From contig PWYU01000088.1 of the NCBI GenBank assembly GCA_003567725.1, forward strand, positions 551-64,550: a stretch of 64,000 nt of DNA. Reading direction: 5' to 3'. The first letter of the stretch is position 1; the number at the start of each line of letters is the position of its first letter. Position numbers and translations under genes: made by a program. The DNA comes from Syntrophomonadaceae bacterium. Its GTDB lineage: Bacteria > Bacillota > Dethiobacteria > DTU022. Shown piece by piece: positions 8,722 to 26,838 of the stretch. Below the pieces are notes generated by a model. The model made no database searches. It was given only the letters and a program-made list of their open reading frames with translations, and was not told where the DNA came from.

Positions 8722-8833
8722 CTAAGCCACAGGGGACGGTTCCACCGTCTCCCCTTCGGCCTTAAAGCTATGCTTTAAGGGACGTTCGAACCGTCCCCAT
8801 GGTGCCGCTTATCATTCAACAAGGGCAATAGGC
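8722..8833. repeat. Copy A of a ~110-nt structured intergenic element: closing stem plus three hairpins. See findings.
   Basis: TAAGCCACA-GGGGACGGTTCCACCGTCTCCCC-TTCGG-CCTTAAAGCTATGCTTTAAGG-GACGTTCGAACCGTCCCC-ATGGTGCCGCTTATC-ATTCAACAAGGGCAATAGGC. Nearly identical to copies at 26468 and 21884. Confidence 0.75.
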
Positions 8834-8864
8834 TGAATAGTTCCCTTATAGTTTTAGATCTTTA

Positions 8865-9987
8865 TCATTTATATGATACTTTCCCTCTGGCTTTCCAACG
8901 CAGGTAAGCGTCTATAAAAGGATCTATCATTCCATCCATTACAGCTTCAACCTGGCCCACTTCAACACCTGTACGGTGATCTTTAACCAGGGTAAACGGA
9001 TGAAAAGTATAAGTCCTGATCTGGCTGCCCCAGGCAATTTCTCTTTGCTGCCCTCTTTCAGCATCGATCGCATCGGCCTGTTCTTGGCGGCTAATCTCTG
9101 CCAGCTTGGCCTGCAATACTCTCAAAGCCTGGGTTCGGTTACTATGCTGAGAACGATCATTTTGACAGGACGTCACCAGGCCGGTGGGAAGATGAGTGAT
9201 CCGCACCGCCGAATCTGTTTTGTTTACATGCTGGCCGCCTGCACCACTGGATCTAAAAGTATCTATCTTTAAATCATCTGGATTGACCAGATACTCCTCT
9301 TCCTCCACTTCAGGAACAACATCAACAGAAGCAAACGAAGTATGGCGCCGCTTGGAGGTATCATAAGGAGATATTCGGATTAACCTGTGGACCCCTTTTT
9401 CGGCCTGCAAATATCCATATGCAGCATGTCCACGGACTATAAAAGTAGCACTTTTTATTCCTGCTTCGTCATCACTTAATAAATCAACCAGCTCCACTTC
9501 ATAACCTTTCTGTTCGCACCACCGGTTATACATGCGCAGAAGCATCTCAGCCCAATCCTGTGATTCCAAACCACCGGCTCCTGGATGAAGGGATAATATG
9601 GCATCACAAAAATCATATTTCCCATTTAATAGAGTTTCCAGTTCAAGGCGATCTAAGTGATCTTTTATTTTTTTCAAAATCATCGCAGCTTCATTAACCG
9701 CTTCTTCATCTTCAAGCGCTTCGTCTTCAGCCAATTCCAGATATATTTCCGCTTCTTCGATCAATTTTTCCAGTTCAGATAAAGGGCGGATCTGTTCCCG
9801 CAAATTACCCAGCTTTTTCATATACTCCTGAGCTTTAGTACTGTTATCCCAAAAACCAGGTTCTCCGGTTTTTGCTTCTCCTTCTTTAAGCTGTTTCAGT
9901 TTTTTATCGTATTCAAAGAGAAGCCCTCATTTCTTCAAACCGCTTCTTCTGAAGCGCCAGTTCTTCGTGGTTTTCTTTCAGCATCAT
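8865..9987 (-). CDS. prfB: Peptide chain release factor 2, made from two frames by a programmed +1 frameshift (shift site CUU UGA A at about 9913-9918).
   Basis: Frame 0 from the ATG at 9987 gives MMLKENHEELALQKKRFEEMRASL, then UGA. The +1 frame continues EYDKKLKQLKEGEAKTGEPGFWDN... through the SPYD and GGQ (GAGGQHVNKTDSAVR) motifs to the stop at 8865. An internal SD-like AGGG lies just upstream of the shift site. Confidence 0.9.
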
Positions 9988-10015
9988 ACCACCACTTTCA
10001 ATTTTGGGTTATAAG

Positions 10016-13000
10016 TTAGTTTGCTCCACAACATTTCTTGTACTTTTTACCACTGCCACAGGGGCAGGGCTCATTTCGTCCTACTTTTTCCACAGTCACC
10101 GGTTCCGGTTTTACCGGTTTTTCTTTCGCTGCGCTTCCGTAGCCGGCCGATGCCCTTCCTCCACCGACAGCAGCAATTCTTCGCCTCTGACCTCTGATAT
10201 CGCTGGCTACTGACTCTCTTTTAGGAGTTGCCGTTACTTTAACCTGATAAACCGCACGAACGACATCATTTTGAACCTGCCGGATCATGTCTTCAAACAT
10301 TTCTGCGCTCTGCATTCTGTATTCAATCAGGGGGTTTCTTTGCCCATATGCCTGGGTGTGAATATCACGGCGTAGATCGTGCATAACATCGATAAAATAC
10401 ATCCAGTGTCGATCAACGGTTTTTAGGAGAATTACTCTTTCCACTTCACGCATAATCTCCGGAGTTAACTCCAACTCCCTTTGATCGTAGAAAGCACGGG
10501 CTTCTGCCTTCAGAAGGGATTTTACATCCTCTTCTTCCTGATCTATCAAATCATCTAATTTTAACTGGTCCTTACGAACAAAAAACTCTTCTGCTTTTTC
10601 CAAAAGGGCTTGCGCATCTTCATCTTCCAGGAAGCCTTTTTCCACAGTAAAATCCTCGACCATCCGGTCAATGATCTCATCAACCATGCCCAGAACCGGC
10701 TGCCTCATATCTTCCCCTTCAAGGACACGCCGGCGCTGACCGTAAATAACTTCCCGCTGCTGGTTAAGAACATCATCATAATCAAGCAGGTTGCGCCTGA
10801 TTTCAAAGTTTCTTGATTCCACTTTCTTTTGGGCATTCTCAATACCCCGGCTAACCAGGGAATGGTCGATGGGCACATCTTCTTCTACTCCGAAACGTTC
10901 CATTAAACTGGCAATATTCTCTCCGCCAAAAAGACGCATCAAGTCATCTTCCAGGGAAACAAAAAACTGAGATGAACCGGGATCACCCTGCCGCCCTGAG
11001 CGTCCTCGCAGCTGGTTGTCTATTCTTCGGCTTTCGTGCCGCTCTGTTCCCAAAACATGCAGGCCTCCGGCAGCTATAACTTCTTCTCTCTGGTCCAGGG
11101 TTTCCTGGATCGCATCTTCAATCAGCCTGGCACGGCGCTCATCCCAGCTTTTTTGTTTGTCTTCTTCCAGTTCTGAGTAGTCGACACCGAATTCATTGAT
11201 TAACTGCTCTTTGATCAGGTACTCAGGGTTACCGCCCAGGATAATATCTGTCCCCCTGCCGGCCATGTTAGTTGATATAGTTACAGCTCCCAGCCGACCC
11301 GCCTGGGCAATAATATATGCTTCTCTAGTATGGTTGACCGCATTGAGGACCTCATGGGGAGCGCCTTCTTTCTTAAGCATGCGGCTTAACGTCTCGGATC
11401 TTTCCACTGATATGGTTCCTACCAGGACCGGTTGGCCCCTTTGCTGGCATTCTTTTATTTCCTCTACAACCGCCCTAAATTTAGCAGCTTCTGTTTTATA
11501 AACCAGATCGGGCCATTCTTCTCGGATTAAGGGCTTGTTGGTTGGTACAGCTACAACATCCATGCCGTATATTTTTTGAAATTCTTCTTCTTCAGTACGA
11601 GCGGTACCGGTCATGCCCGAGATTTTTTTATACATCCGGAAATAGTTCTGAAATGTAATTGAAGCAACTGTTCTGGTAGCAGCCTGCACCTCCACTCCTT
11701 CTTTGGCCTCGATAGCCTGATGAAGTCCGTCGGAATAACGGCGACCGGGCATGAGGCGGCCTGTAAATTCATCCACGATGAGCACCTTACCGTCCTGGAC
11801 CACATAATCGACGTCTTTTTCGAAAAGAGAATAGGCTTTTATGAGTTGATCAAAATAATGGCGGTGCTGACCTGCAGATTCAGCATCTTCACCATCCTCT
11901 ATCACATCGTGCTGCAATTCATGGTCTTCATCATCTAAAGATTCGCTGTCGTCATCTTCAGCTTTGTCTTTGCCTAAGCGTAAAATCTTTGTCAGTTCCG
12001 GGTTAACCCTTTCCAGCTCGCGGTAACCTTTATCTTTGATATCAGCCAGCCTGGTAGACTCATCGATGATATAGTACAACTCCTCATCAAGATGAGGGAG
12101 CCTTTTTTCGGTCATCAAGCGGTGTTTAGTTCGTTCCACCAGCTTTTCCATACCCGGCTCTTTGAGCATCTTCATTAATTTTCTATTTTTAGGAGAACCC
12201 CGCCTGGCGAGAAGCAGTTTTTCGCCGGCTTCGTCTTCTTCACCGGAATCGAGATCTTTGCGGGCTTCATTCAATAGGTCGTTGATCAGCTTATTCTGCC
12301 GGCGAATCATGTGTTCAACCTCTTTTTTCCAACGGCCGTAATCTTCTTTGGATTCTACCCTGCTGCTGATAATCAGAGGCGTGCGCGCTTCATCAATGAG
12401 GATACTGTCAACTTCATCAATAATGGCATAATGATGATCTCTTTGCACCATTTGATCTTTATAAAGAACCATGTTATCCCGTAAGTAATCAAAACCCAAT
12501 TCATTGTTGGTAGCATATAATATGTCTGAACGGTACGCCTCCTGGCGTTCCTCCGGCTTTAAACCCTGCAAAACCAGGCCAACTGACAGGCCAAGCATTT
12601 CATAAACCGGGCCCATCCAATTTCGGTCTCTACGGGCCAGGTAATCATTGACTGTAACAATATGGACTCCTTTACCGGACAGCGAATTCAAGTAGGCAGG
12701 AAGAGTGGCGACCAGAGTTTTGCCTTCGCCTGTTTTCATTTCAGCAATTCGGCCCTGGTGTAAAACTAGCGCTCCTAAAATCTGGACGTCAAAGGGCCGC
12801 ATACCGGTTTTTCGGTGAGCTGCTTCCCTCGCTAAAGCAAAGGCTTCAGGTAGAAGATCATCTTCGCTTTCGCCTTGCTGCATCCGTTCTTTAAACAAAG
12901 CTGTCTGTTTTGCAAAATCTTCATCAGGCAGTGAAACAGCCCATTCTTCCAGGGCGTTAACTTCTTCAACTGTTTTTTCTAAGCGGCGCACCTCTTTATC

Positions 13001-13042
13001 ATTGGGATCGCCAAATAATTTTTTTAAAAAAGCAGCCATCAC
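10016..13042 (-). CDS. secA: Preprotein translocase ATPase SecA.
   Basis: 1008 aa. DEAD-like motor motifs ([38 protein letters not shown]) and a C-terminal zinc finger ([14 protein letters not shown]). Confidence 0.95.
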
Positions 13043-13211
13043 AAAGCTCCTTTAACAAAATATGTGTTTTGTCAAACCATGATACTAATAATTACAACCT
13101 ATTTAAATGATTAAGCTCAACTTTGATAGTGCTACCCAATTCTAACACAAGCAAAGCCTGCGCAACAAGTTCCGGCAGGCTCAAGTTAAATCCAGTCCAT
13201 AATAATCAGTG

Positions 13212-14357
13212 TTAACCATGATCCGGGGCAAGTTCACAGGTCAGGGCCCAGAGGCTGCCCGAAACCAGGGAATGCCCTCCCAAAATAACCGGGACCGGAC
13301 ATGCTTCTGCCAATCTGGTGAATTTTCTTAGCCAGGGATCTTCTATTTCATTCCATTTACCCAGGTCAGACAAAAACCGCTCCCGATCAGAAAATTCATG
13401 CTGATAGTGGTACATTAATACCCGGCTATCTATAAATACACAGCGGGCTACTTGAGCCAGGTATTGAAAAAACTGCTCCAAACCGGCATGATCCAACAGC
13501 AAACCCAGTAAAGATATAACTTCTTTAGCCTCGATCCGGCCCAGCGATTTCATACCCCGCTCTTCTGAAAAAACGCGTAAGCGCAGTTTAAGCAGGGCAT
13601 TTAGGCGCTCAATAACCGGCGCCCCAACCCTACCAATCAGGGCAATATCTTCGTACTCATCTTTGAGCACTGCTTTGGCAGATACAAGCTTACTGCCATC
13701 CAAATGCAGGCTATCCAGGGCTTCTTGGGTCCGGGGACCGGCAAAAGGCCCCTCTTTCAATACTATTAGATCAGAGGGGGTATCAATGTCAAAGAGCAGG
13801 CCCAGGGTATGGGGCATGAGTTCCATTTCCAGATTCAGTTGATCACGCAAGGCCATGGCCAGGCTGTTGTCTTTAGCCGGCAGCTCGACGATGTCAATTT
13901 GTTCAGGTACAGTAAAAGCGATTATATCAACAGATTGAGTATTGTTAGTATAAACAAACTGCTCACGACTGAGCAGTTTGTGGCAAATCATATTTAATTC
14001 TTCCACAGTGATCAGAGGGGATCCAGCTCCATTTAAACAAATAACTCGTTTCAGATTATGCTGTTGAATCGCATCCTGCAACTCTCGACCAAAATGAAAA
14101 TCTTCAAGCGCTTTATAATTAAGAAATACTCTGGCTCCCAGCCGTTCAGCAGGATCTACCAGTTCCGGCCTGTTGGTATGCAGGTAAACCCCTTCCAGAA
14201 AAGAAATCTGCTGCATCTTCTCCAGGTTGTCAAGCAAAGCAGCCTGACGAACTTTAACCATCATTTCCTCAACCCAGCTTTTGGGATGGGATCCCTCAAA
14301 TACTATAGCACTTATTTCACGGCCCATAATCCTAAATCTATTCTCTCTTCCTGCCAA
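13212..14357 (-). CDS. Conserved hypothetical protein of unknown function.
   Basis: 381-aa ORF between hpf and secA, with a good coding look and no overlapping competitor. I could not assign a family from the sequence. Confidence 0.5.
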   Translation of the reverse strand: MAGRENRFRIMGREISAIVFEGSHPKSWVEEMMVKVRQAALLDNLEKMQQISFLEGVYLHTNRPELVDPAERLGARVFLNYKALEDFHFGRELQDAIQQHNLKRVICLNGAGSPLITVEELNMICHKLLSREQFVYTNNTQSVDIIAFTVPEQIDIVELPAKDNSLAMALRDQLNLEMELMPHTLGLLFDIDTPSDLIVLKEGPFAGPRTQEALDSLHLDGSKLVSAKAVLKDEYEDIALIGRVGAPVIERLNALLKLRLRVFSEERGMKSLGRIEAKEVISLLGLLLDHAGLEQFFQYLAQVARCVFIDSRVLMYHYQHEFSDRERFLSDLGKWNEIEDPWLRKFTRLAEACPVPVILGGHSLVSGSLWALTCELAPDHG

Positions 14358-14395
14358 TAATCAACTCAGCGATTTCTATTTATCTTGCAAAGATT

Positions 14396-14935
14396 TTACT
14401 CAGGTTCAATTAACCCGTAATTTCCGTCTTTTCGACAATAAATAACATTTGTAACATCGGTGTCCGCGTTAGCAAAGACAAAAAAACTATGCCCTAATAG
14501 ATCCATCTGCAAAATCGCTTCTTCAACAGTCATAGGCTTAAGTGGAAACCGTTTGGTTCTTACTACCTGTGGTTTATCTTCTTCAACTTTCTCTTCAGCT
14601 TCAAGCGCAGCCTGTTTTTCATTCATAGAGCGAAAACCATTTTGCCTGTTCTGCTTTTTAACTCGAGTTTTATATTTTTTTACCTGCCGCTCCAGTTTAT
14701 CGACAACCTGATCTATAGAAGCATACATGTCTCCGGTAGATTCTTCACCACGTATAATCATGCCATTCAGATTAACCGTAACTTCTACAATATGATCTTC
14801 ACGAATAACGCTCAATACTACCTGAACATCAGTATTTTGATCAAAATGTTTGTCCAGCTTACCCAACTTTTTATGGGCATAATCAACCAACGAAGGTGTA
14901 GCGTCGATATTTTTGCCGCGTACATTTATTATCAT
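14396..14935 (-). CDS. hpf: Ribosome hibernation-promoting factor, long form (HPF/YvyD).
   Basis: MIINVRGKNIDATPSLVDYAHKKLGKLDKHF... is the typical long-HPF N-terminal domain; a C-terminal dimerisation domain is present. Confidence 0.9.
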   Translation of the reverse strand: MIINVRGKNIDATPSLVDYAHKKLGKLDKHFDQNTDVQVVLSVIREDHIVEVTVNLNGMIIRGEESTGDMYASIDQVVDKLERQVKKYKTRVKKQNRQNGFRSMNEKQAALEAEEKVEEDKPQVVRTKRFPLKPMTVEEAILQMDLLGHSFFVFANADTDVTNVIYCRKDGNYGLIEPE

Positions 14936-15032
14936 TACTATCGACCTCCTGTTTAATATAGTTATCTATACTACTACATAAAGTATTCCCCAGTCCAGTT
15001 AAAAATCCTTCCGTGAAAATTTTGATATGTTC

Positions 15033-15845
15033 CTACCACTTCTCCAGACCGGCATAAAAACCGGTCCTTTGTATGGCCCTGATGTTCGGATTATAAGCAA
15101 TAGCAGCTCCAAAAACCCTTGCTCCTGTTTTATTTTTTAAAGCTAAAGCCGCTTCTTTCATGGTTGCTCCCGTTGAATAAACATCATCCACCAGAAGAAT
15201 GGTTGATTTATTGTATTTTTCAGGACGGCATTTAAAAACACCGCGTACATTGCTCTGCCTGTCATAGCGAGAAATTGAAGTCTGAGACCTGGTATTAATC
15301 GCTTTGAATAAAAGATTACCGCGCCATGGCACCTTTAAAACCTGCGCCATGTTGCGAGCTAATAAGGCTGCCTGGTTATATCCCCTTTCTCTTTCCCGGA
15401 CAGGGTGAAGGGGAACAGGAACAATTAAATCCGGTTTACAATAACGGTTGTTCAATATTTCAAAAGCCAACCAGATAGCAAGTGGGCGAATTACTGCCCG
15501 CCGGTTTCTGTATTTTAGCTCATGAATTAATTTCCGCCAGCTTTGATCATAGAGTGCTGCAAAAAATAGCCCTTCTAAGGAAATGCTCTTAACAATACAA
15601 CTACAAGGCGGCTCTTCACGAAAAAAACTTTCACAGTTAGGGCATATTCTACCACCCGCTGAATAATTCTTTTGGCAGGTTGAGCATAATGGATTCAAGC
15701 TGGAAATGGGGATGATATCCCTACAAAACAGGCAGCGATCTGGAAAGAGCTGATAAAGAAAGCTGTGGAGCCAGCCTTTACGTTTGCTTAAGGTAATTTG
15801 TCCGGGAGAATAAGCTTCTGTAGTTAATTTATGATAGCGGGTCAT
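15033..15845 (-). CDS. comFC: ComF-family protein (ComFC-like; double zinc ribbon plus phosphoribosyltransferase fold).
   Basis: N-terminal Cys pairs (CLFCRD...CSTCQ; CPNCES...) and a C-terminal PRTase motif (ILLVDDVYSTGATMKEAA). Confidence 0.8.
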   Translation of the reverse strand: MTRYHKLTTEAYSPGQITLSKRKGWLHSFLYQLFPDRCLFCRDIIPISSLNPLCSTCQKNYSAGGRICPNCESFFREEPPCSCIVKSISLEGLFFAALYDQSWRKLIHELKYRNRRAVIRPLAIWLAFEILNNRYCKPDLIVPVPLHPVRERERGYNQAALLARNMAQVLKVPWRGNLLFKAINTRSQTSISRYDRQSNVRGVFKCRPEKYNKSTILLVDDVYSTGATMKEAALALKNKTGARVFGAAIAYNPNIRAIQRTGFYAGLEKW

Positions 15846-15898
15846 TTTTCAGCCCTTTGTCCTCACCATTTTATCTTGAATATAGATTTTGATATTGC

Positions 15899-18115
15899 TC
15901 ATATTTCAGTTTCTTCGCCTTTCAGACGGACGCTTAAATATGTGTGACGATCTTCTGCTCTGTTGTTACGGACAGCAATAGCCATAGCTTTTTTACTACC
16001 GACCAGGACAGCCAGTTTCTTCGCCCTGGTTATTCCGGTATAGAGTAAATTTCTTTGGAGCAGCATATAATGCTGAGTTAATATAGGCATAATTACCACA
16101 GGATACTCACTGCCCTGGCTTTTATGAATGGAAACAGCATAAGAAAGGACCAGTTCATCGAGCTCGGTAAAATCATATATCACAGGCCTATCCATAAGCA
16201 CATCCCGAAAAGTGACTACCAGTTCGGTCGCTTCCTTATCAATAGCGGTTACCAGGCCGATATCTCCATTATATACTTCTTTCTGATAATTATTACGGAT
16301 TTGCATTACTTTATCGCCAAGGCGAAAAATATTCCCTCTGGATGTTATTTCTAATTTATCCCTGCCAGGAGGATTAAGCGCTTGTTGCAGCAGAATATTA
16401 AGCCGGTCAACCCCCGCAGCCGTTTTACGCATCGGCGTAAGCACCTGAAGATCTAACAAAGGATCATAAGGGCCATAATTAGGCAAACGCTCCCTGCATA
16501 ATTGCACAACCAGTTCAGCGGCCTGTTCGGCATCTTCCTCATGCATAAAAAAGAAATCTTTCTTTTTTAGATTTAAGTAAGGCATATCACCTTTGTTTAC
16601 CCGGTGCGCATTCACGACAATCATGCTCTCCCGGGCCTGACGAAAAATATAGCCCAGGCGAAAGCATGGGATTACTGCGGAATTGATTAAATCACGAAGC
16701 ACGTTTCCCGCTCCAACAGCAGGAAGTTGATCCACATCTCCGACCATTATCAAACGACAGCCTGCAGGCACTGCCTTGAGCAAATTATACATAAGCAAAA
16801 GATCAACCATCGAAGCTTCATCAATGATGATCACCTGGGCTTCGATAGGATTATCCGCATTACGTTTAAAACTAAAACCTTCTCCCTCTATAAAACTGTA
16901 CTCCAGCATGCGATGGATCGTAAATGCTTCCTGACCGGTAGCTTCCGTAATCCTTTTAGCCGCTCTGCCTGTTGGTGCTGCCAGCAGAACTTTTTGCCTC
17001 AACCTTTTATATGTGGAAAGCAAAGCTTTGATAGTAGTAGTTTTTCCAGTACCGGGACCGCCAGTAACGATTAAAACCCCGTTTTGCATAGCTAGATCTA
17101 AAACCTGCAGCTGCTCATCGGTTAAATGGGGATTATCATGGCTTACAGCTCCAAGGGCCTGGCTTGTTTCCAAAGGTGAATACTGCCTGGCCTGCTTGCT
17201 TAAGCGGTTAATTAAAATAGCTGAATTTTTCTCTGCCTGATAAAATGGGGCATAATAAACTGCTTCGTCTTCTGCTAACTGTTCACAGAACAAAGTCTTT
17301 TTAAGAACCATGTCCCGGAGCTGTTGATCCAAATACTCTTCTGATATTACCTTGTCAGAGTCGCTTAACAGAGTATTGACCCTTTCAAACAATTCTTTTT
17401 TTGGCAAATAAACATGCCCCTGTTCCGATGCCCGATTAAGGTTATAGGCAAATGAAGCCTGGATCCTCTCCGGTGCATCTTCAGACATGCCAAGTTTAAG
17501 GGCGATCTTATCTGCGGTTTTAAAACCGACCCCGAAAATATCTTCAGCCATACGATAGGGATTTTCCTTGACCTGCTGAATAGTATGGGAACCATACCGC
17601 CGGTATAGCCGCATAGCCTGGTTAATTCCGATGCCGTATCCTTGCAAAAAGATCAAGACATTTTGCACGTCTTTGTATTTCCGGTAACTAGCTATGATAT
17701 CGGCAGTCTTCCTTGTGCCAATACCTTCTACTTCTTGCAACCGCTCAGGCTCATTTTCTAAGATATCAAGTGTATCTAATCCATAGTGTTCAACTATTTT
17801 ATCAGCTGTAACAGGGCCAATCCCTTTAATTAAGCCAGAAGATAAATAATTCTTCAATCCTGCTTCAGTAGCCGGTAAAAGTCGTTCCCAATGTTCAACA
17901 GAAAGCTGCCGCCCATACCGGGGATGAACCTGCCACTGGCCCTTAACAAGCAAGTTCTCTCCTTCTTGCATAGAAGGAAAGCTACCAACTATGGTAACCG
18001 GATTACTATCACGACAGCGCAAAACACCGACCAGATAAGAGCTCTCATCGCTATAGAATCTTATTTTTTCAAGGGTTCCTTCGATTTGTTCCAGCGGGTC
18101 AACCTCCTGCATCAC
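15899..18115 (-). CDS. recD2: RecD2-like SF1B ATP-dependent DNA helicase (YrrC family).
   Basis: 738 aa. N-terminal HhH region, Walker A GGPGTGKTTT, Walker B IIIDEASMVD and a C-terminal SH3-like/UvrD_C tail. Confidence 0.85.
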   Translation of the reverse strand: MMQEVDPLEQIEGTLEKIRFYSDESSYLVGVLRCRDSNPVTIVGSFPSMQEGENLLVKGQWQVHPRYGRQLSVEHWERLLPATEAGLKNYLSSGLIKGIGPVTADKIVEHYGLDTLDILENEPERLQEVEGIGTRKTADIIASYRKYKDVQNVLIFLQGYGIGINQAMRLYRRYGSHTIQQVKENPYRMAEDIFGVGFKTADKIALKLGMSEDAPERIQASFAYNLNRASEQGHVYLPKKELFERVNTLLSDSDKVISEEYLDQQLRDMVLKKTLFCEQLAEDEAVYYAPFYQAEKNSAILINRLSKQARQYSPLETSQALGAVSHDNPHLTDEQLQVLDLAMQNGVLIVTGGPGTGKTTTIKALLSTYKRLRQKVLLAAPTGRAAKRITEATGQEAFTIHRMLEYSFIEGEGFSFKRNADNPIEAQVIIIDEASMVDLLLMYNLLKAVPAGCRLIMVGDVDQLPAVGAGNVLRDLINSAVIPCFRLGYIFRQARESMIVVNAHRVNKGDMPYLNLKKKDFFFMHEEDAEQAAELVVQLCRERLPNYGPYDPLLDLQVLTPMRKTAAGVDRLNILLQQALNPPGRDKLEITSRGNIFRLGDKVMQIRNNYQKEVYNGDIGLVTAIDKEATELVVTFRDVLMDRPVIYDFTELDELVLSYAVSIHKSQGSEYPVVIMPILTQHYMLLQRNLLYTGITRAKKLAVLVGSKKAMAIAVRNNRAEDRHTYLSVRLKGEETEI

Positions 18116-18143
18116 AGATCCAAGGTTTATTTCTATACTGCAT

Positions 18144-18277: not shown

Positions 18278-19465
18278 TTAAAGAACTTCCTTGAGCTGCT
18301 CAACTTTATCAAGGCGCTCCCAGGTTAAATCCAGTTCAGGCCGGCCAAAGTGACCATAAGAAGCCAGCTGGCAATAAATCGGGCGGCGCAGCTGCAATTG
18401 ATCAATTATGGCGGCAGGTCTTAAATCAAAGTATTTATTAACAGCCTCTTCGATATGTTTTACAGGGACCTTTTCTGTACCATAGGTTTCAATCATCATG
18501 GAAACCGGATGGGCCACCCCGATGGCATAAGCCAGCTGCAGCTGGCACCTGGAAGCCAGGCCGGCTGCTACAATGTTTTTGGCTACATATCGAGCCGCAT
18601 AAGAAGCCGAACGGTCAACTTTCGTCGGATCTTTACCAGAAAATGCACCGCCCCCATGGGCAGCATAACCACCGTAGGTGTCAACAATTGTTTTTCGACC
18701 AGTCAACCCGGCATCCCCTTGAGGACCGCCAATCACAAAGCGTCCAGTGGGATTTATATAAAAACGAGTCTCAGGAACAATTAGTTTTTCAGGAACAATT
18801 TCCTTAACAACAAGCTCAACCAGATCTTTTTCAATCTGTTCCAGCGAAACTTCGTCACTGTGTTGAGCTGAGACAACAACATTATCAAGGCATACAGGTT
18901 TACCGTCTTCATAAACAACTGTGACCTGGGTTTTACCATCTGGCCGCAAATAATCAACTAAACCTCCTTTTCGAATATCAGTCAATCTCTGAGCCATTTT
19001 ATGAGCAAGCGCTATAGGCATAGGCATTAGTTCAGGGGTTTCTTCACATGCATAACCGAACATGATGCCCTGATCCCCGGCGCCAATCTGATCATAATCA
19101 TCTTTTTGCTGTTTGCTCCTGGTCTCAAAGGCTTCATTAACACCCTGCGCAATATCCGGTGACTGTTCGTCGATAGAGGTCAACACAGCACATGTTTCTC
19201 CATCAAACCCGAATTTTGCTCTTGTATAACCAATATCAAGTACTTTATCTCTAACTAATTGCGGTATATCTACATAACATTCAGTAGTGATTTCTCCACA
19301 AACCAAAACTAAACCGGTTGAAACCATAGTTTCTGCAGCAACTCTACCCATGGGATCTTGTTCCATAATAGCATCAAGAATAGCGTCAGAAATCTGGTCA
19401 GCCATTTTATCAGGGTGTCCTTCGGTTACTGATTCAGATGAAAACAGGTAATCACATTGATGCAC
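18278..19465 (-). CDS. metK: S-adenosylmethionine synthetase.
   Basis: 395 aa with the hallmark motifs GHPDK, GAGDQG and GGGAFSGKD. Confidence 0.95.
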
Positions 19466-19697
19466 TAAATTTCTCCTCCTTAGTTTTAAACTAAATTATA
19501 TTTTAACTTTTATAAAGCTGGCGTCAGACATGTTCATTATAAATCGGGCTTTTAGTCTGGGTAATCCCAAGCTTTTATTTACCGGCATACCATTAATGCG
19601 CCTGACATTGATTAGATTTAATAACACCCACTACGGGGTATACAGGTAAATCAATTTTCACCACCTATCCAAGCTGATAATGTAAAGCCCTTTAACG

Positions 19698-19835
19698 AAA
19701 AAAGCCCCTTTCCTCAAGAGGCCTTTTAGGCACCACTCATCTCCCGGGTAATTCCCGCAGCAATTGGCACCGTGAACAATTGAACCGGTTGCCGGGATTC
19801 ATCGGGGCTGTCCCTCCTCCGCTCTTGATAAGAGT
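19698..19835 (-). promoter_or_regulatory. SAM-I (S-box) riboswitch with its intrinsic terminator, in the metK leader.
   Basis: The minus strand reads CTCTTATCAAGAGCGGAGGAGGGACAGCCCCGATGAATCCCGGCAACC...GGTGCCAATTGCTGCGGGAATTACCCGGGAGATGAG, which is the S-box consensus. It is followed by the hairpin GCCUCUU-GAGGA-AAGGGGC and UUUUUU. Confidence 0.85.
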
Positions 19836-19896
19836 TATCTATAATATTGTAGTACTATAATACAGGAGTAGTCTTCAAAAGTCAATTTTGTGACAA

Positions 19897-20346
19897 TCAA
19901 GCCTGATCGCGATCAACCAGGGCGAACCAAAGTTCCCCGGAGGCGATTTTTTTATCATCTATCCAGGCCTGGGCATCACCTTTTCCTATATTGCGCCGCA
20001 TCCCAGTCATCACAACCTGTAATTGTAACTGATCACCCGGTTTCACAACCTGCTTAAACCGGAAATTCTTTATGCCGCTAAAAACAGCCAGCTTGCCTTT
20101 ATTATCATCCATGCTTAGAACAACAGCTGCACCAACCTGAGCCAGCGCTTCTATAATCAATACGCCGGGCATTACCGGCATACCTGGAAAATGGCCCTGA
20201 AAAAATGGTTCATTAATAGTAACATTTTTTAAACCAGAAGCTTTTTCACCCGGGACAAGCTCTGTTAAACGATCTACCAGCAAGAAGGGATAGCGGTGAG
20301 GTAATACTGACAGGATTTTTTGGATATCCAGGTTCTCTTCAGTCAT
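19897..20346 (-). CDS. fabZ: 3-hydroxyacyl-ACP dehydratase FabZ.
   Basis: HRYPFLLVDR...PFFQGHFPGMPVMPGVLIIEALAQ hot-dog-fold signature. Confidence 0.9.
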   Translation of the reverse strand: MTEENLDIQKILSVLPHRYPFLLVDRLTELVPGEKASGLKNVTINEPFFQGHFPGMPVMPGVLIIEALAQVGAAVVLSMDDNKGKLAVFSGIKNFRFKQVVKPGDQLQLQVVMTGMRRNIGKGDAQAWIDDKKIASGELWFALVDRDQA

Positions 20347-20349
20347 TAG

Positions 20350-20997
20350 CTAACCTCCTTTCCTACCAGTTTTTTCTAATATGATTTTTACTTCCTGATC
20401 ATCAACCTGGCTAAAATCACGGTAAAATTGGCCAACAGCTGCAAAATGAGCAGGGGCATCAATAAAAATTAGTTCGTCCACTTCGTGATCCAGGATGCTA
20501 AAAGTATCAGCAGGTCCTATCGGAACAGCAAGAATTAGTTTGGCTGGTTGCTTTTTTTGCAGGCTGCGCAGAGCTGCCAGAAGAGTATATCCGGTAGCCA
20601 CTCCATCATCAATCAGAATTACCAGGCGTCCATCAACTTCTGGCATTAACTGATTACCCCGGTAATCATTCATCCTCCGCCTGATTTCTTTCTGCTCTTT
20701 ACCTGCCCTTTTATTGATATATTCATAATCAACATTAAGCCTGGAAACCAGCTGATCATTAAGCATGATCAATCCGTCCCCACTGACAGCACCTATAGCC
20801 AGTTCAGATTGATAGGGAGCACCTATTTTTCTGGTAATAATTAAGTCCAGCTCTCCTCCTAAATAGTTGCATACCGGCTCGGCGACAATCACTCCACCCC
20901 GGGGAACAGCCAAAATCAAAGGCTCCAGGCCCCGGAAATGATTCAGTTTATCAGCAAGTTTTTGCCCTGCCTCACTCCGGTCTCGAAAAAACATCTT
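20350..20997 (-). CDS. Predicted phosphoribosyltransferase (type I PRTase fold, COG1926-like).
   Basis: PRPP-binding loop LVILIDDGVATGYTLLAAL. The likely start is the internal Met (MFFRDRSEAG) at 20997; the ORF track extends to 21051. Confidence 0.7.
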   Translation of the reverse strand, partial: KMFFRDRSEAGQKLADKLNHFRGLEPLILAVPRGGVIVAEPVCNYLGGELDLIITRKIGAPYQSELAIGAVSGDGLIMLNDQLVSRLNVDYEYINKRAGKEQKEIRRRMNDYRGNQLMPEVDGRLVILIDDGVATGYTLLAALRSLQKKQPAKLILAVPIGPADTFSILDHEVDELIFIDAPAHFAAVGQFYRDFSQVDDQEVKIILEKTGRKGG

Positions 20998-21074
20998 CTC
21001 CCCCTGCGGTAGAGATAATAGCCAAATAAAAACCCATTTTGAAATGATCACTTATCAGGCTAAATTCTTAAAGA

Positions 21075-21830
21075 TTAAAAAGAAACGCCTTGAAACAATT
21101 TGATAGAGTCCTGCACGGCTCTTGAATCATCAGGCAGCTTTAAAAGAGGTTGACCATTTAAGTCATATTCGGCAACCATAGGGTCATAACCAATTTCACC
21201 TAAAAGTTGAAGCTCGCTTTTTTTAATCTCCTGATCAAGGGTCTGCGCTTCCCCATCCCTGCTGCGGCTAATAATCAAACCCATTTTTGCCACATCAAGA
21301 TTAACCTTTTCCACTATTTCTTTAACTCTTTTGGCAGAGCGGATTCCCCTTGCTGTTGCATCACTGGTAACAAGCAGCAAATCAACCATGGGCAGGAGGC
21401 GGCGGCTAAGATGTTCCAAGCCTGCTTCATTATCAATAACTATATAATCATAATTCTTACTTAATGTTTCCAGGTATTTTTTTAGCAGATCATTGGGGTA
21501 ACAATAACATCCCGGCCCTTCCGGGTTACCCATCACCAGGAGATCAAAAGCTTTTTCCTCCACCATGGCTCGACTCAGGCGGTATTCAACAAAAACATCT
21601 TTTGTCATCCCACTGGGAACAGCTTTAGGATCTTTGGTATCTTCAAGGATTGAACTAACCGTTTCATCAACTTCAAGGCCAAGGGCTTCGTTCAGGTTGG
21701 CATTAGCATCGGCATCGACGGTCAGGATATCCTTTCCCTTTTTTTCTTCCATAAGATAACGAACCAGCAAAGCAGCTAAAGTAGTTTTACCGGTTCCTCC
21801 TTTACCGGCTACTGCTATACGCATTGTCAT
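21075..21830 (-). CDS. cooC: CooC/AcsF-type nickel-insertion ATPase (MinD/ParA superfamily).
   Basis: Deviant Walker A (AGKGGTGKTT) and the CooC-specific metal-binding CxC motif (GPGCYCYPN). Confidence 0.75.
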   Translation of the reverse strand: MTMRIAVAGKGGTGKTTLAALLVRYLMEEKKGKDILTVDADANANLNEALGLEVDETVSSILEDTKDPKAVPSGMTKDVFVEYRLSRAMVEEKAFDLLVMGNPEGPGCYCYPNDLLKKYLETLSKNYDYIVIDNEAGLEHLSRRLLPMVDLLLVTSDATARGIRSAKRVKEIVEKVNLDVAKMGLIISRSRDGEAQTLDQEIKKSELQLLGEIGYDPMVAEYDLNGQPLLKLPDDSRAVQDSIKLFQGVSF

Positions 21831-21883
21831 AATTATTTACTCCTCTCTCAACTTTTATTTGCTAAATATGAACTGTTATTCTT

Positions 21884-21995
21884 CTAAGCCGCACGGACAG
21901 TTCCACCTTCTCTCCTTGGGCCTTAAAGCTATGCTTTAAGGGACGTTAGAACCGTCCCCATGGCGCCGCTTATCATTCATTAAGGACAACAGGTC
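21884..21995. repeat. Copy B, the more diverged copy, of the structured intergenic element.
   Basis: TAAGCCGCAC-GGACAGTTCCACCTTCTCTCC-TTGGG-CCTTAAAGCTATGCTTTAAGG-GACGTTAGAACCGTCCCC-ATGGCGCCGCTTATC-ATTCATTAAGGACAACAGG. Hairpins 2 and 3 are intact; hairpin 1 has decayed. Confidence 0.7.
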
Positions 21996-22063
21996 TATTA
22001 GTTACAAAATCATTTTATAAAAAAATGCAATACCTGATTTCGTATTAAATCACAGTCAGTAAC

Positions 22064-23419
22064 CTAAAGGCGCCCGGCCAAAACCTCATCCAGCTGGGCT
22101 ATTGTATTGCAGGGCCACATTTCCGTTAAGGCGGCAACCGTTTGGACTGACCGATGCTCAACCCACTGCTCTCGAGGAAGCGGGTTTAGCCAAACGATCC
22201 TGCCAACTCGATCAGAAAGCCTGCTTAATTCATCAACAGCATGATCCAGCGCAATAGTCCTGGTATCGCTTACCACAATTACAGTAGTTCTCCTATTTAA
22301 TAAATCAGGATATTTAGTTCTTAGCAGCTGGAGAGACATACCAAGGTTTGTGCCACCGCCCCATGTCTCACTGCGGTGAATTACATGCTCTAATATTTGA
22401 TGGATGCTACCGCGCTTCTTAATTTCCTGAGTCATATTTTCCAGTTCATCAGAAAAACTGAAACAGGACAAATCCCGCACCGCTTCCCGCAAACCATGCA
22501 AAAATTGCAGTACAAAAGCACTATACTTTTTCATAGAAGCTGATACATCGCAAAGTAGTAAAATTTGCTCGCGATCACGCCGTTTAGGTTTATATTTTAT
22601 TTTAAAAATAATCCCCCCATAACGCAAATTGTCACGCAGAGACCTGCGTAAATCAATAAGGCCGCTTCTAGGTCCTTTTTTACGCCTGCGTAGAATTTGA
22701 ACAGCCAGCTTTTTAGACAACCTTTGGATTATTTGTTCAACCTCTGGCAATTCCCTTGCAGTAATGGATTGCATATCCATTTCACTTAAATAATCCTGGT
22801 TGGCACTGCTTCCTGAACCGCAACCGCCAGCCATGGCTTTAGAGGGTTCTCCTCCGGGGCTGCTGCCGGTATTTTCATCTTGACGATTACCGGAACGGCA
22901 ATACCGAAGATGGCTTTTAACAACCGTTTCCAGAATCGGCCGAAAAGGTTCATTCACATTAACTCCCGATTCGGTCTTATGCATGAATGCCTGCAGGCGT
23001 TCACGCTGTTGACTGGTCAATGTGCTGTACTGGGCTAGTTCAGTGGAGGTTAACTGCAAAGGTTCTCCTTTAAAAGTCAGCTCATTGCCGGCTTGCTTTA
23101 TTTTATCAGCACACCGCTTTTTGTAAGCCGCGGTTTGTTCTTCTCCATGGTTATGCACTTCTGGCGGAGCAAAAAAGTAATCGAAAATGGTATTAAATAA
23201 ATCCCTGTCTCGATAATTTTTGATCAAAGTAGCCTGTAGAGTTACTTTAAAATTCTCCCTGGAAGATAAGTCAATCTTTTGAAGAGACTGCAGGGCATCC
23301 ATTGTTTCACTAGAGCTAATTGGAAGCCCTTCTTTCCTTAGAATATTTGTGAATATAACCAGATTCTCTTCAAGATGGCTGTCGGACAAATTTTCTTTCA
23401 GTAACAACTTACAACTCAA
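22064..23419 (-). CDS. CoxE-like von Willebrand factor A protein.
   Basis: 451 aa. C-terminal VWA with a MIDAS-type DxSxS (LLCDVSASM); it overlaps the upstream MoxR ATPase gene by 4 nt. Confidence 0.75.
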   Translation of the reverse strand: MSCKLLLKENLSDSHLEENLVIFTNILRKEGLPISSSETMDALQSLQKIDLSSRENFKVTLQATLIKNYRDRDLFNTIFDYFFAPPEVHNHGEEQTAAYKKRCADKIKQAGNELTFKGEPLQLTSTELAQYSTLTSQQRERLQAFMHKTESGVNVNEPFRPILETVVKSHLRYCRSGNRQDENTGSSPGGEPSKAMAGGCGSGSSANQDYLSEMDMQSITARELPEVEQIIQRLSKKLAVQILRRRKKGPRSGLIDLRRSLRDNLRYGGIIFKIKYKPKRRDREQILLLCDVSASMKKYSAFVLQFLHGLREAVRDLSCFSFSDELENMTQEIKKRGSIHQILEHVIHRSETWGGGTNLGMSLQLLRTKYPDLLNRRTTVIVVSDTRTIALDHAVDELSRLSDRVGRIVWLNPLPREQWVEHRSVQTVAALTEMWPCNTIAQLDEVLAGRL

Positions 23420-24312
23420 CCTCCATCTTTGCCTTGCTTTAAAATATCTTCTATGCCTTGCGAACCTATTTCCGCTTTAAAAAAATCCTGGTCGGCACGG
23501 GTTTTTAAAATCAAGTTTAAAGTTTCGCTTACCAGTTTCCCATCAAGACGCTTTTTGCTCAAAAAAACCAGGGCTCTGGCCCAATCCAATGTTTCTGCAA
23601 TAGAAGGCTTTTTGCGCAAATCGCCTTGCCGTCGCAGGTTAGCTGCCACCCTGGCGATATCCCAGGCCAACCGATCAGCCGCGCCGGGCACTTTTGCTCT
23701 TATAATTTCTACTTCTTCTTCCACAGTTGGAAAATCTAAATATAGATAGAGACAACGCCTTTTTAATCCATCGGATAATTCGCGTTCATTGTTGCTGGTT
23801 AAAACTACAGCAGGGATTTGATTTGCCTGAACAGTCCCCAGTTCCGGAATAGAAACCTGGAAATCAGAGAGAATTTCAAATAAAAAAGCTTCAAATTCAG
23901 GATCGCATTTATCTACTTCATCAATTAACAGCACCGGGGTTTCTAAGGCCCGGATAGCTTTCAACAATGGTCTTTCTAAAAGGTATTGCTCAGAAAATAG
24001 ATCTTCTTCCTTGACCTGTTCTTCTTCCAGGTTACGATTCATCTGAATCCGCAATAATTGGCGCTGATAATTCCATTCATATAGTGCTTTTGTTTCATCT
24101 AATCCTTCATAACACTGCAGCCTGATCAGTGCTGTATGCAAAATCTCTGCCAGCACCTTGCCCATCTCTGTTTTTCCTACACCTGGAGCTCCCTCAATCA
24201 GTAAGGGTTTTTTTAGCTCAAGCGTTAAAAAAACCGTTAATGCAGTACTGTCATCACAAATATAGCCTGCTTCCTTAAAACCTTTTTTTAAATCTGCAAG
24301 AGTTAAATTCAT
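23416..24312 (-). CDS. MoxR/CoxD-like AAA+ ATPase.
   Basis: Walker A LIEGAPGVGKTE, Walker B LLIDEVDKC and the AAA lid. It pairs with the VWA gene as in CoxD/CoxE. Confidence 0.8.
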   Translation of the reverse strand: MNLTLADLKKGFKEAGYICDDSTALTVFLTLELKKPLLIEGAPGVGKTEMGKVLAEILHTALIRLQCYEGLDETKALYEWNYQRQLLRIQMNRNLEEEQVKEEDLFSEQYLLERPLLKAIRALETPVLLIDEVDKCDPEFEAFLFEILSDFQVSIPELGTVQANQIPAVVLTSNNERELSDGLKRRCLYLYLDFPTVEEEVEIIRAKVPGAADRLAWDIARVAANLRRQGDLRKKPSIAETLDWARALVFLSKKRLDGKLVSETLNLILKTRADQDFFKAEIGSQGIEDILKQGKDGG

Positions 24313-24519
24313 ATTAAAACCTATCCTTTATTGGGCTATTGCTCTGCTCTGTGGCTTAAAATTACCATGTCTTTAAAAAATAAAGAATTTTTACAGACAA
24401 GATTTATTACCCAGAAAAACTATAATTAATGATACTATAACTGCCTGATCCCGGCAAATTTAAGACGAGAAATCTTTTCCTATTTTGGTTATAGCATTTA
24501 GGAACTGTAAATAAAAGGG

Positions 24520-25248
24520 CTATATAGAAAAACTATCCCCTGGCTGAAGTATTACGCACTTACTGCTTGTATTTTCCTCCACTTTTTTCTTAAAAACTTC
24601 CGGATCTAATTCAATCAAAGGCCAGGTATTATAGTGATAAGGGATAACCACTTTGGCCCGCAGAAAAGATGCGGCAATAACAGCATCATCAATACCCATG
24701 GTAAAATTATCACCAATAGGCAGCAATGCAAGATCAAGGGAATCCAGTTCGCCGATTAATTTCATGTCGTAAAAAAGCCCTGTATCACCGGCGAAATAAA
24801 TTTTTGTACCATAATAATCAACTACAAAGCCGCAGGCATGGCCACCTTCTATACCGGCACCATGAAATGCAAGGGTAAGTTTAACTGAACCAAAGGATTG
24901 ATAACTGCGGCCACCAATATGCTGAGCATGAGCATTATACCCATCTGCCGCAGCTTTTTTGGCTATTTCTGAAGTAGAAATAATTTTAGCTCCATTCTGC
25001 CTGGCTATTTCATAGGCGTCCCCGAAGTGATCCCAGTGAGCGTGAGAAATAAGGATGTAATCAGTTGTGATTTCATCGACAGTAACAGTTGCTAACGGAT
25101 TTTCACTGATAAATGGGTCAAACACGAGAACCTCTTTTCCTTTTTCAGAGAGCAGAAAGCTGGTATGACCCCAAAAAGTAATATTCGGCAAAGCAGTTCC
25201 CTCCTTGTTTTCTTTCTGATTATTAGATATGTCTTTTATAACAATCAA
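24520..25248 (-). CDS. Metallo-beta-lactamase-fold hydrolase.
   Basis: HxHxDH zinc motif (ISHAHWDHFGD) with downstream His/Asp ligands. Confidence 0.75.
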   Translation of the reverse strand: MIVIKDISNNQKENKEGTALPNITFWGHTSFLLSEKGKEVLVFDPFISENPLATVTVDEITTDYILISHAHWDHFGDAYEIARQNGAKIISTSEIAKKAAADGYNAHAQHIGGRSYQSFGSVKLTLAFHGAGIEGGHACGFVVDYYGTKIYFAGDTGLFYDMKLIGELDSLDLALLPIGDNFTMGIDDAVIAASFLRAKVVIPYHYNTWPLIELDPEVFKKKVEENTSSKCVILQPGDSFSI

Positions 25249-25269
25249 AAACCGGTTGGCGCGAACCTA

Positions 25270-26313
25270 TCAATAAATCATTACTTTATGCACATATTCA
25301 GACGTCATCAGGTTTAATGTAGAAACATAGTTTAAGTCAAAGTCAATAATATCACCAACCCTATAGTCTTTTGAAGATGATTCTATGTCTAAAATCAGGT
25401 GATCACCGCTGGCTCCAATCACTTCTAGATCTGAATCACAGGGTCTAATATGATCAGGATCAACATCCTGTTTGCCTACGGCCAAAAGGGCCTTTTTCCT
25501 GATACCTCTATCTTCAAACACCGGCTTTCTAAAAAAAGCATCCAGCCCTATATCTCCGGTAGGGGCCGAAGGCTTAGATTTAACTTCGATTATTTCTGCT
25601 TGTAATTGAAAAACCTGACTGTGGACGTTCAAGCCTGTTCCCTGGATAAATATTTCCCCCATCCGCAGTTGATTTATCCTGGCTGGCATTTTACCCTGCT
25701 TTATTAAATGAAAGCTTGACGTACTTCCACCAGAAACAATTTCCAACTTTATTTTAAACTTGTTTTCAATTTGCTCAGCCTTTTGGGCCAGAAGCCCTAA
25801 ATTGTTTTCATCAGGAATTACGCCTCCAAAACAGGAAAGGTTAGCACCGATTCCAACAAGCTTTATTCCCTTAATTTCGCTAATTGCTTGAACATAATCC
25901 AGCACATCTTCTATAAGCACGCCTTCTCTAATATCGCCAAGTTCTAACATTAAGATGATTTTATGCCTTTTACTCTGAAGAACTGCTTCCCGCCCCAGGG
26001 TCCGAATTGTTTCAAGTTCAGAGTTTAAGCTGACATCTGCATATTTTACAACATCTGCCGCTTCACTAAGCATGGGAATTCGCAGCAGGTATCTTGGAAC
26101 ATTAAAACAGCCCAGTTTCTTCAAATTTTTAATCCGAGAATCAGCCAGACCGCTGACACCGCCTTTTACATAAGCTTCGGCAATTCCCGGGTGGCCACAG
26201 AATCCTTTTGTTACCCCGATTATCTCAATCTCATGTGCGTCACAGATCTTTTTTGCCAGAGAGACATTTTGGGTTAGTTTATTGAGGTAAACATTAATAG
26301 AAGGATATTGCAA
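25270..26313 (-). CDS. Fold-type III PLP enzyme with an alanine-racemase-like N-terminal domain (YhfX / ornithine racemase-like).
   Basis: 347 aa. N-terminal TIM-barrel racemase-like region (IIGVTKGFCG...LLRIPMLSE) and a C-terminal beta domain; the length matches predicted amino-acid racemases. Confidence 0.6.
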   Translation of the reverse strand: MQYPSINVYLNKLTQNVSLAKKICDAHEIEIIGVTKGFCGHPGIAEAYVKGGVSGLADSRIKNLKKLGCFNVPRYLLRIPMLSEAADVVKYADVSLNSELETIRTLGREAVLQSKRHKIILMLELGDIREGVLIEDVLDYVQAISEIKGIKLVGIGANLSCFGGVIPDENNLGLLAQKAEQIENKFKIKLEIVSGGSTSSFHLIKQGKMPARINQLRMGEIFIQGTGLNVHSQVFQLQAEIIEVKSKPSAPTGDIGLDAFFRKPVFEDRGIRKKALLAVGKQDVDPDHIRPCDSDLEVIGASGDHLILDIESSSKDYRVGDIIDFDLNYVSTLNLMTSEYVHKVMIY

Positions 26314-26467
26314 ACAAGACCCTCCTCACTCAGTTATCTGCTTTCATACATAATAACATAAGAGAGTCCAGTAAATACATTAATTATACCTCTCTTTCTT
26401 TTTTGCTTTAACTCTTGTCAGGGTTTCTGAAAATCTAGTTTATTAGTTTGCGCATTAGGTCTTTTTT

Positions 26468-26578
26468 TAAGCCGCAGGGGACGGTTCCACCGTCTCCCCT
26501 TCGGCCTCAAAGCTATGCTTTAAGGGACGTTCGATCCGTCTTCATGGCGCCGCTTATCATTCAACAAGGGCAATAGGC
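26468..26578. repeat. Copy C of the structured intergenic element.
   Basis: TAAGCCGCA-GGGGACGGTTCCACCGTCTCCCC-TTCGG-CCTCAAAGCTATGCTTTAAGG-GACGTTCGATCCGTCTTC-ATGGCGCCGCTTATC-ATTCAACAAGGGCAATAGGC. In hairpin 3, changes CCC to CTT keep pairing by G-U wobbles. Confidence 0.75.
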
Positions 26579-26838
26579 TTTGTCGTTACAAAGGAAAAAT
26601 CAATCCAGTTGCTTATTGAGCTTATATAAGTTCGGGTAAATTGTAAATTGGGTTGAATATTTTAGATAATAAGAATATCCCTTTCTATAATAATGGCCGC
26701 CTACGAATGCTTAAACTTTACAACAAAAGCTATGCTGAAGTAGCAAATTTGACTTAACCTTTAGCTTGGTTTAATCTTGTGATGTGACAATCAGCGCTGC
26801 AGGCTAATGCAGACGAGGCGGAGGTAAGCCTGATAAAA

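Follow-up and report, generated by a model that had tools for sequence, protein, structure and literature searches.

A palindromic, probably mobile interspersed repeat of soda-lake Syntrophomonadaceae that mimics a structured RNA

The DNA analysed here is a stretch of 64,000 nucleotides from contig PWYU01000088.1 of a Syntrophomonadaceae bacterium (assembly GCA_003567725.1), hereafter the window. Its + strand holds three similar intergenic copies, A, B and C, of a non-coding element, all in the same orientation. Copy A (8700–8844) lies between the stop codon of prfB at 8865 and the start of yitT at 8674, and copy B (21885–22005) between the stop of a coxE-like gene at 22064 and the start of cooC at 21830, with all four genes on the − strand. 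Copy C (26468–26589) occupies a divergent spacer between a racemase-like gene (25270–26313, − strand) and a histidine kinase gene (26839–28542, + strand). Over 122 nt, A and C are 91% identical, A and B 86%, and B and C 85%; two invariant blocks of 21–23 nt occur exactly three times each in the window, a result matched by none of 100 shuffles. A previous interpretation made from the letters of this DNA (the sequence-only reading) had located three similar intergenic copies at about these positions, and in this it was right. The extent of about 110 nt that it gave them was too small, since the full form with its terminal inverted repeats is longer, and it had remarked on neither these repeats nor the palindromic nature of the whole. 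As set out below, the element is probably a non-coding palindromic interspersed repeat of ~125–150 bp, a non-autonomous mobile element resembling MITEs (miniature transposable elements with inverted repeats), and would constitute a new sequence family.

Copy A is a full-length form of about 145 bp (nhmmer E 1e-47). On the + strand it begins with a left terminal inverted repeat, GTAACTACTCAG (8700–8711), and ends with a right one, CTGAATAGTTCC (8833–8844). Ten of the 12 positions pair, the exceptions being one A·C and one T·C, and the right repeat counts as having one mismatch when the pattern search permits Y at one position. The left repeat belongs to a 23-nt left arm (8700–8722, + strand) that is common to the copies at four loci outside the window, L001, L003, L008 and L013. 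Directly after it comes a conserved 89-nt core, TAAGCC...GCTTA (8723–8811, + strand; covariance-model match of 117 bits), in which a central hairpin stands between two near-identical GGGACG...CGTCCC hairpins. Copies B and C are short forms that lack the left arm, and both start at TAAGCC. B is the most diverged of the three (nhmmer E 1e-38; covariance-model match 21885–21972, 94.6 bits), and C scores closer to A (nhmmer E 9e-44; covariance-model match 26468–26556, 112 bits). The covariance-model search that the sequence-only reading had proposed, run with filters off, returned only A, B and C from the 64 kb, and nhmmer at E values up to 10 likewise found no further diverged copies there.

As copies from other genomes show, the full-length form starts with GTAACTACTCAGGCATAGCCCGC, directly left of TAAGCC, and ends with ...GGCTGAGTAGTTAC; it carries a 12-bp terminal inverted repeat, GTAACTACTCAG...CTGAGTAGTTAC. 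This repeat is perfect in L008 and has one to three unpaired positions in A, L001 and L013. Copies are 121–155 bp long. Their sole reading frame is a 15-codon open reading frame (ORF) on the minus strand that has no ribosome-binding site, and a small peptide gene was rejected on this ground. Taken end to end, the element forms a long, imperfect palindrome. Each copy is matched by the family profile on its opposite strand too (nhmmer E ~1e-6), and the identity between copy A and its reverse complement is 62%, compared with 51 ± 2.7% for shuffles.

We searched for the exact core pattern in one genome for each of 185,579 species and found three real loci (L001, L002 and L003), in two Syntrophomonadaceae metagenome-assembled genomes (MAGs) from Cock Soda Lake sediment, with L001 and L003 in MAG SKZS01; a fourth hit, L004, was a chance match within a coding region. 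A scan of JGI metagenomes gave nine pattern-matching stretches (L005 to L013), all from soda-lake or alkaline sediment, three of which repeat loci already found. In total there are 14 distinct loci plus remnants, 11 of them beyond the window, in MAGs and metagenomes of soda-lake Syntrophomonadaceae/Dethiobacteria. Copies in unrelated contexts are 85–94% identical. Two metagenome contigs, L005 and L011, start or stop inside a copy, a pattern to be expected if assembly fails at repeats. The copies cluster, with three inside 18 kb in the window and none in its other 46 kb, and with two inside 1.3–7.5 kb in L002, L008 and L011; this could reflect local hopping or regional tolerance. Scanning viral contigs with two core patterns gave no match, nor did a BLAST search with copy A against plasmid and phage collections.

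Profile searches also revealed a second subfamily, at L002 1318–1472 (− strand) and at L011 4737–4888 (+ strand), the latter being the same locus as L003 7963–8000. These copies (L002b and L011b) share the 90-nt core and carry different, longer arms that end in a 12-bp inverted repeat of their own, ACTACAGCGAAA/TTTCGCTGTAGT; their left arm contains an additional small hairpin. Changes on the two arms are coordinated between the subfamilies, in that the ends differ yet stay mutually complementary. Real co-variation in the element is confined to whole arms compared across the two subfamilies, and it would be expected alike from a transposase that binds two ends and from a hairpin that needs closure. 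Variation inside the core is also modular. The central hairpin has been swapped wholesale in four copies: in L005, L008 and L002b for a TCAGA-rich segment, and in L011b for a third sequence. The TCAGA-type module, a degenerate repeat such as ATCAGAGATCAGAACCCAGAT that stands in place of hairpin 2, lies at L005 45–80, L008 1590–1625 (− strand) and L002 ~1365–1420 (− strand). Its presence in both arm subfamilies points to recombination between element variants. A truncated 50-nt remnant at L008 2741–2790 (+ strand) consists of a subfamily-2 right arm and the start of the core; it sits directly after a stop codon, 1 kb from the full-length copy. At L003 400–478 (− strand) the element stops after GCCGC and is followed immediately by a terminator-like hairpin between A and T runs (AAAAATACTCCTGC...GCAGGAGTATTTT), a break left either by deletion or by DNA that entered the element afterwards.

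Orthologous sites with and without the element indicate how copies A and B arose. A YitT protein identical to the window's is found on several contigs of this species, from MAGs and metagenomes, and all of these have the 190-nt prfB-yitT spacer with copy A. Four relatives whose YitT proteins are 89, 89, 83 and 76% identical keep the gene order metK-recD2-comF-hpf-X-secA-prfB-yitT-ftsE-ftsX, and their prfB-yitT spacers measure 64, 65, 24 and 8 nt and are free of the element. The coxE-cooC spacer shows a like difference, measuring 233 nt in the window and 53 nt in two relatives (L023 and L024); in a third (L025) it is 124 nt and has no similarity to the element. The site of copy C has no element in L023. 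Covariance-model and profile searches found no copy in ~150 kb of the relatives' DNA. That syntenic spacers are element-free means that copies A and B are lineage-specific insertions. In a nearer relative (L027), with YitT 98% identical, the DNA is unrelated from 14 nt 5′ of the start codon and no prfB end is found; no element lies within 170 nt upstream of yitT, which shows absence there only and not a clean empty site. This junction indicates a recent rearrangement in the near relative. Another contig, L028, stops 50 nt past the gene and does not inform on the site.

The genes beside the 14 copies have no function in common. They encode release factor 2, a YitT membrane protein, CooC, a CoxE-like VWA protein, a racemase-like protein, a histidine kinase, a cyclase, an MttB methyltransferase, an acyl-CoA dehydrogenase, a PhzF-like protein, isocitrate dehydrogenase, a prolidase, an ArsP permease, a deaminase-TrmO fusion, an Mrp antiporter subunit and trigger factor. 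No transposase is found among these neighbours. Most copies are 5–55 nt from a gene end; that of L002 lies between convergent genes, and those of L003 and L009 follow closely on a gene that runs in the element's + orientation. Copies A, B and C contain no sigma-70-like promoter, and neither strand at these copies has a terminator-like site of GC-rich hairpin and U tract. An intrinsic terminator or insulator was rejected, there being no U tract.

Several lines of evidence converge on a mobile element: terminal inverted repeats, folding into a rod, small size and no coding capacity on the one hand, and on the other filled versus empty orthologous sites, intergenic copies near gene ends, remnants and modular variants. 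A mobile element was the first-listed alternative in the sequence-only reading, and the empty sites, inverted repeats and dispersed copies bear that suggestion out. Full-text literature searches with four diagnostic oligomers of the element gave a single hit, which was irrelevant, and nothing relevant was found in the literature on Dethiobacter repeats or transposases. As there is no match in Rfam, in the plasmid and phage collections or in the literature searched, the element appears to be a new family of MITE/ERIC-like repeats. Copies would have been inserted by a transposase acting in trans and recognising the ends, with a DDE enzyme acting on the inverted repeats as our preferred guess. 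Insertion would favour AT-rich spacers, a few bases past stop codons, and the inserted copies would then be co-transcribed passively with neighbouring genes. Effects on the processing or stability of mRNA are known for REP, ERIC and Correia elements, and by analogy the very stable hairpin RNA of the present element may incidentally have them too. There is no evidence that such an effect on mRNA is a selected function, nor need it be one.

A number of observations weigh against a classical MITE. Neither the window nor ~350 kb of loci yielded a parent insertion sequence or a transposase whose ends match, and a terminal-repeat search of the same loci for a larger, transposase-bearing segment returned only small elements and one remnant. 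Nor can target-site duplication be demonstrated. Candidates of 8 bp are present in four of ten copies, with best flank matches of 7/8 in L013 and L009 and 6/8 in L008 and L002, and flanks taken from different copies reach at least 6/8 in 16% of cases; no 8-bp flank duplication was seen in A, B, C, L006 or L007. Orientation is uneven, in that the minus strand of the element is mRNA-sense in six out of six copies in co-directional spacers (A, B, L001, L007, L008 and L011b; two-sided p ~0.03), a ratio that over all 12 classifiable copies becomes 9:3 and is not significant. Copy number appears low, at three loci in the genome scan and nine stretches in the metagenomes. Six of the 14 copies, B and C included, have no left arm and all begin at the identical base (TAAGCC), a fixed start that is not predicted by random decay of a two-ended transposon. 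Between the two subfamilies, moreover, the internal core is better conserved than the ends. In MITEs it is usually the other way round, and this hints at recognition of the core hairpins and not the tips. Left-arm loss, core conservation and orientation bias, the three features that fit a classical MITE least, might together point to a single-strand mechanism that recognises hairpins, of the HUH/RAYT or IS200/IS605-like kind, though we think this improbable.

This brings us to the best surviving alternative, namely that the element resembles REPINs or palindrome-associated transposable elements (PATEs) and that an HUH (Y1) transposase, of the REP-associated tyrosine transposase (RAYT) or IS200/IS605 TnpA type, mobilises it in single-stranded form. 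We regard it as unlikely. The bulged GGGACG...CGTC(T)CCC core hairpins would be the recognition sites, the outer arms would only pair, and no target duplication would be made. In its favour, the core hairpins are more conserved than the termini between subfamilies, hairpins 1 and 3 repeat the same palindrome with a bulged T in hairpin 1, and a convincing target duplication is absent. The six-out-of-six orientation in unidirectional spacers fits strand-specific single-stranded transposition where genes follow replication. CTAC...GTAG is present near the tips of both subfamilies, resembling the conserved GTAG of REP sequences; in REPINs, however, the orientation of CTAC and GTAG is the inverse of that found here, which counts against such an origin. 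Like REPIN/REP-RAYT systems and IS200/IS605 PATEs, the element has hairpin doublets of a repeated palindrome, with hairpins rather than tips held constant, no convincing target duplication and a possible strand bias. It differs from them in being longer and more complex, in its very low copy number, far below that of typical REP families, and in having no conserved target sequence of 4–5 nt beside either end, where these systems have a flanking target tetranucleotide. None of the copies has a Y1 transposase or TnpB gene nearby, and no RAYT or TnpA gene was seen among the neighbours. A broader version, which we likewise consider doubtful, holds that the core and not the tips is the active part, either of a strand-specific single-stranded mobile element recognised by its hairpins (REPIN/RAYT-like) or of a domesticated RNA processing or stability module. 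If true, it would explain the orientation bias and the absent target duplications.

The sequence-only reading had presented a structured RNA with a closing stem, three hairpins and hairpin-preserving covariation. The listed hairpins can indeed be drawn, with the closing stem re-read as TAAGC and CAC against GTG, CC and GCTTA. Hairpins 1 and 3 are direct repeats of one palindrome, hairpin 1 carrying the bulged T. Hairpins 2 and 3 as earlier drawn share two G residues, leaving hairpin 3 with four free pairs and not six. Between the 5′ arm of hairpin 1, GGGGACGGTTC, and the 3′ arm of hairpin 3, GAACCGTCCCC, complementarity is exact, an equally good alternative pairing. In consequence, all variants have as their minimum-energy fold, on both strands, a long rod that the terminal repeats close (z-scores −2 to −8.6; hairpin stability −59 to −69 kcal/mol), and the four-way junction is another, local way of arranging these four segments. 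Covariation was tested on the nine copies with a common centre (alignment A2). Paired cells amount to 93.8% in the four-way fold and 93.4% in the rod, so that as a consensus structure the former is no better than the latter, and in both folds only one pair is altered on both sides. For the four-way fold the covariation score was 0.026, versus 0.032 in shuffles, and 484 of 500 shuffled alignments reached it; the rod scores alike, its score being reached by 359 of 500.

The individual signs of selection on an RNA fared no better. The closing-stem pair cited as covarying, A-U versus G-C, reads A·C in ten of the 14 copies and A·G in another; copy A alone has A-T, and only B and C have G-C. With A·C in the majority, the A-T and G-C states are two independent single substitutions from a mismatch. 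Wobble pairs had been taken to favour the plus strand. Among one-sided changes there are seven distinct G·U on the + strand, six on the − strand and 12 transversion mismatches, and the G·U counts thus favour neither strand. The loop of hairpin 3, TTCGAAC, had been likened to a tRNA T-loop; it is altered in five of the 14 copies, namely B (TTAGAAC), C (TTCGATC), L007 (TTCTAAC) and the second-subfamily copies L002b and L011b (CTCGAAC), and tRNA search tools find no match. The structure is kept because the copies are young and the DNA is palindromic, and there is no sign of selection on an RNA. The headline of a structured RNA with covariation is therefore not supported, since covariation is no better than in shuffled controls.

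Two further alternatives concern an RNA. The first is a cis-acting structured RNA (a riboswitch, an attenuator or a processing/stability module) made from the minus strand of the window and selected in a leader or intercistronic region. It would account for the same strand of the element being mRNA-sense between co-directional genes (in the window, L001, L007, L008 and L011b), for the position of A, B and L001 25–53 nt 5′ of a start codon, and for folds far more stable than those of shuffles; the two mutually exclusive pairings, hairpins 1 and 3 versus a 1:4 rod, are attenuator-like. We nevertheless judge it very improbable. Covariation does not exceed that of shuffles, and Rfam gives no match: with Rfam 15 at the gathering score only a SAM riboswitch and a tRNA are found in the window, and nothing at the elements, which upholds the claim that the element belongs to no known RNA family. 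In E-value mode, at E up to 10, the region of copy A returns only weak, sub-gathering matches (E at least 0.18) to miRNA, snoRNA and similar families. The downstream genes are unlike one another (yitT, cooC, the racemase, the cyclase, a tRNA methyltransferase/deaminase fusion and a small unidentified ORF). The copy between convergent genes in L002 and those in L003 and L009, which follow a gene in the opposite orientation, do not suit a leader, and the orthologous leaders of relatives are element-free and too short to hold one. There is no terminator and no arm that would sequester a ribosome-binding site, and an identity of 85–94% across unrelated contexts is unlike riboswitch paralogues. That unrelated neighbours argue against a ligand-specific riboswitch had been said from the three copies, and the neighbours across all 14 agree.

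The second is a group of small RNA genes, each transcribed on its own, or a tRNA-like RNA with a cloverleaf-like four-way junction whose T-loop RNase P or other tRNA enzymes might recognise. It has slightly less to commend it still. The four-way junction can be drawn, the 7-nt loop TTCGAAC of hairpin 3 fits the T-loop consensus in most copies, and the discrete TAAGCC end of the short copies is a conceivable RNA processing site. Against this, neither ARAGORN nor the Rfam tRNA model (RF00005) finds a tRNA at the elements. Hairpins 1 and 2 do not resemble D and anticodon arms, their stems being 8–9 bp and their loops 5 and 3 nt; key positions of the T-loop are mutated in the five copies listed above, and the central arm is swapped wholesale in four. 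No promoter or terminator is present, and most copies are only 5–55 nt from genes; this absence and the tight fit between genes likewise speak against the small RNA or toxin-antitoxin RNA that had been put forward before.

Finally, a simple recent duplication within the 18-kb region, immobile and functionless, would explain why all three copies lie inside 18 kb in one orientation, but it can be dismissed almost outright, as homology ends at the element ends with unrelated flanks, copies on other contigs, from MAGs and metagenomes, match A as closely (93% identical) as do the window's own copies B and C (85–91% identity among the three), and the 11 other loci, from several soda-lake samples, refute it. 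An integron attC site was also considered and rejected: the ends misfit RYYYAAC/GTTRRRY, and the copies are flanked by housekeeping genes in place of cassettes.

The interpretation as a mobile palindromic repeat is best judged beside known systems. Prokaryotic MITEs have terminal inverted repeats, direct repeats that fade with age, AT-rich intergenic or 3′ untranslated sites and transcripts with stable stem-loops, in copy numbers from one to hundreds (PMC10969869, PMC3184786) and as low as 1–22 per genome (PMC10969869). Like Correia elements of Neisseria, QMITE2 of Coxiella and RUP of pneumococcus, the present element is a non-coding sequence of 100–200 bp with terminal inverted repeats (PMC10969869, PMC3184786, PMC2229807). 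It also shares with bacterial MITEs its dispersal in AT-rich intergenic DNA, often just past stop codons, its presence or absence between relatives and the long hairpins predicted for its transcripts. It differs from them in having no sequence similarity, no demonstrable target duplication and no known parent insertion sequence, and in the better conservation of the core than of the termini, the loss of one arm at a fixed breakpoint and the low copy number. Correia elements occur in length variants through a 50-bp internal deletion, comparable with the internal-segment variants seen here.

ERIC sequences (also called IRU), 127-bp imperfect palindromes, are alike in size, palindromic form and transcribed intergenic sites occupied in either orientation; they too have size variants made by insertions and deletions at fixed internal points, and no known mobilising enzyme. 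The host here belongs to the Bacillota and not the Gammaproteobacteria, there is no sequence similarity, and ERIC usually has tens to hundreds of copies. The copy number of ERIC varies widely between lineages (PMC10969869), and according to work cited in that paper ERIC changes the stability of its carrier mRNA in Yersinia.

Insertion sequences of the IS66/ISBst12 family are a possible parent. Terminal repeats of the IS66 family start with GTAA and the family makes 8-bp direct repeats (PMC11946415, PMC12888890). Subfamily-1 ends of the present element start with GTAAC, and the best candidate duplications (L008, L013) are of 8 bp, though not significant. Beyond GTAA, GTAACTACTCAG is unlike the consensus GTAAGCG (PMC11946415), and the subfamily-2 ends differ. 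No IS66-type transposase was seen among the neighbours of the copies. The GTAA ends as a link to IS66 are only a lead.

Another likeness, by description and with no sequence relation expected, is to bcr1 of the Bacillus cereus group, a MITE-like repeat of ~155 bp whose predicted RNA structure shows compensatory changes. Both are Firmicute intergenic repeats of equal size with a stable predicted RNA fold and features of mobile elements. bcr1 makes a TTTAT duplication and has a higher copy number than the present element, in which compensatory changes are not found.

Other features of the window are of a familiar kind. A SAM-I riboswitch (RF00162; 19734–19834, − strand, 79.6 bits) lies upstream of metK (18278–19465, − strand), an ordinary arrangement. 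The prfB gene beside copy A has a programmed +1 frameshift: a 24-codon ORF0 (9987–9913, − strand) ends in CTT TGA (9918–9913), and the +1 frame runs on into the ORF at 8865–9821. Because of this frameshift, release factor 2 appears in the ORF list as a truncated protein of 318 aa. The sole tRNA in the window is a tRNA-Thr with anticodon CGT (37621–37696, − strand).

For the family, the features that bear on how such repeats are mobilised are the conservation of the core over the ends, the swappable central modules and the fixed breakpoint of the short form. The element accounts for some assembly breaks in these MAGs, as the two contigs that end inside copies illustrate. Its annotation value lies in the fact that the copies mimic a candidate structured RNA, being stable, rich in hairpins, repeated and without an Rfam match, and they would be false positives in riboswitch and non-coding RNA screens of soda-lake Bacillota. 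Taken as what it probably is, the element is a new but ordinary small palindromic mobile repeat, which could serve as a strain marker.

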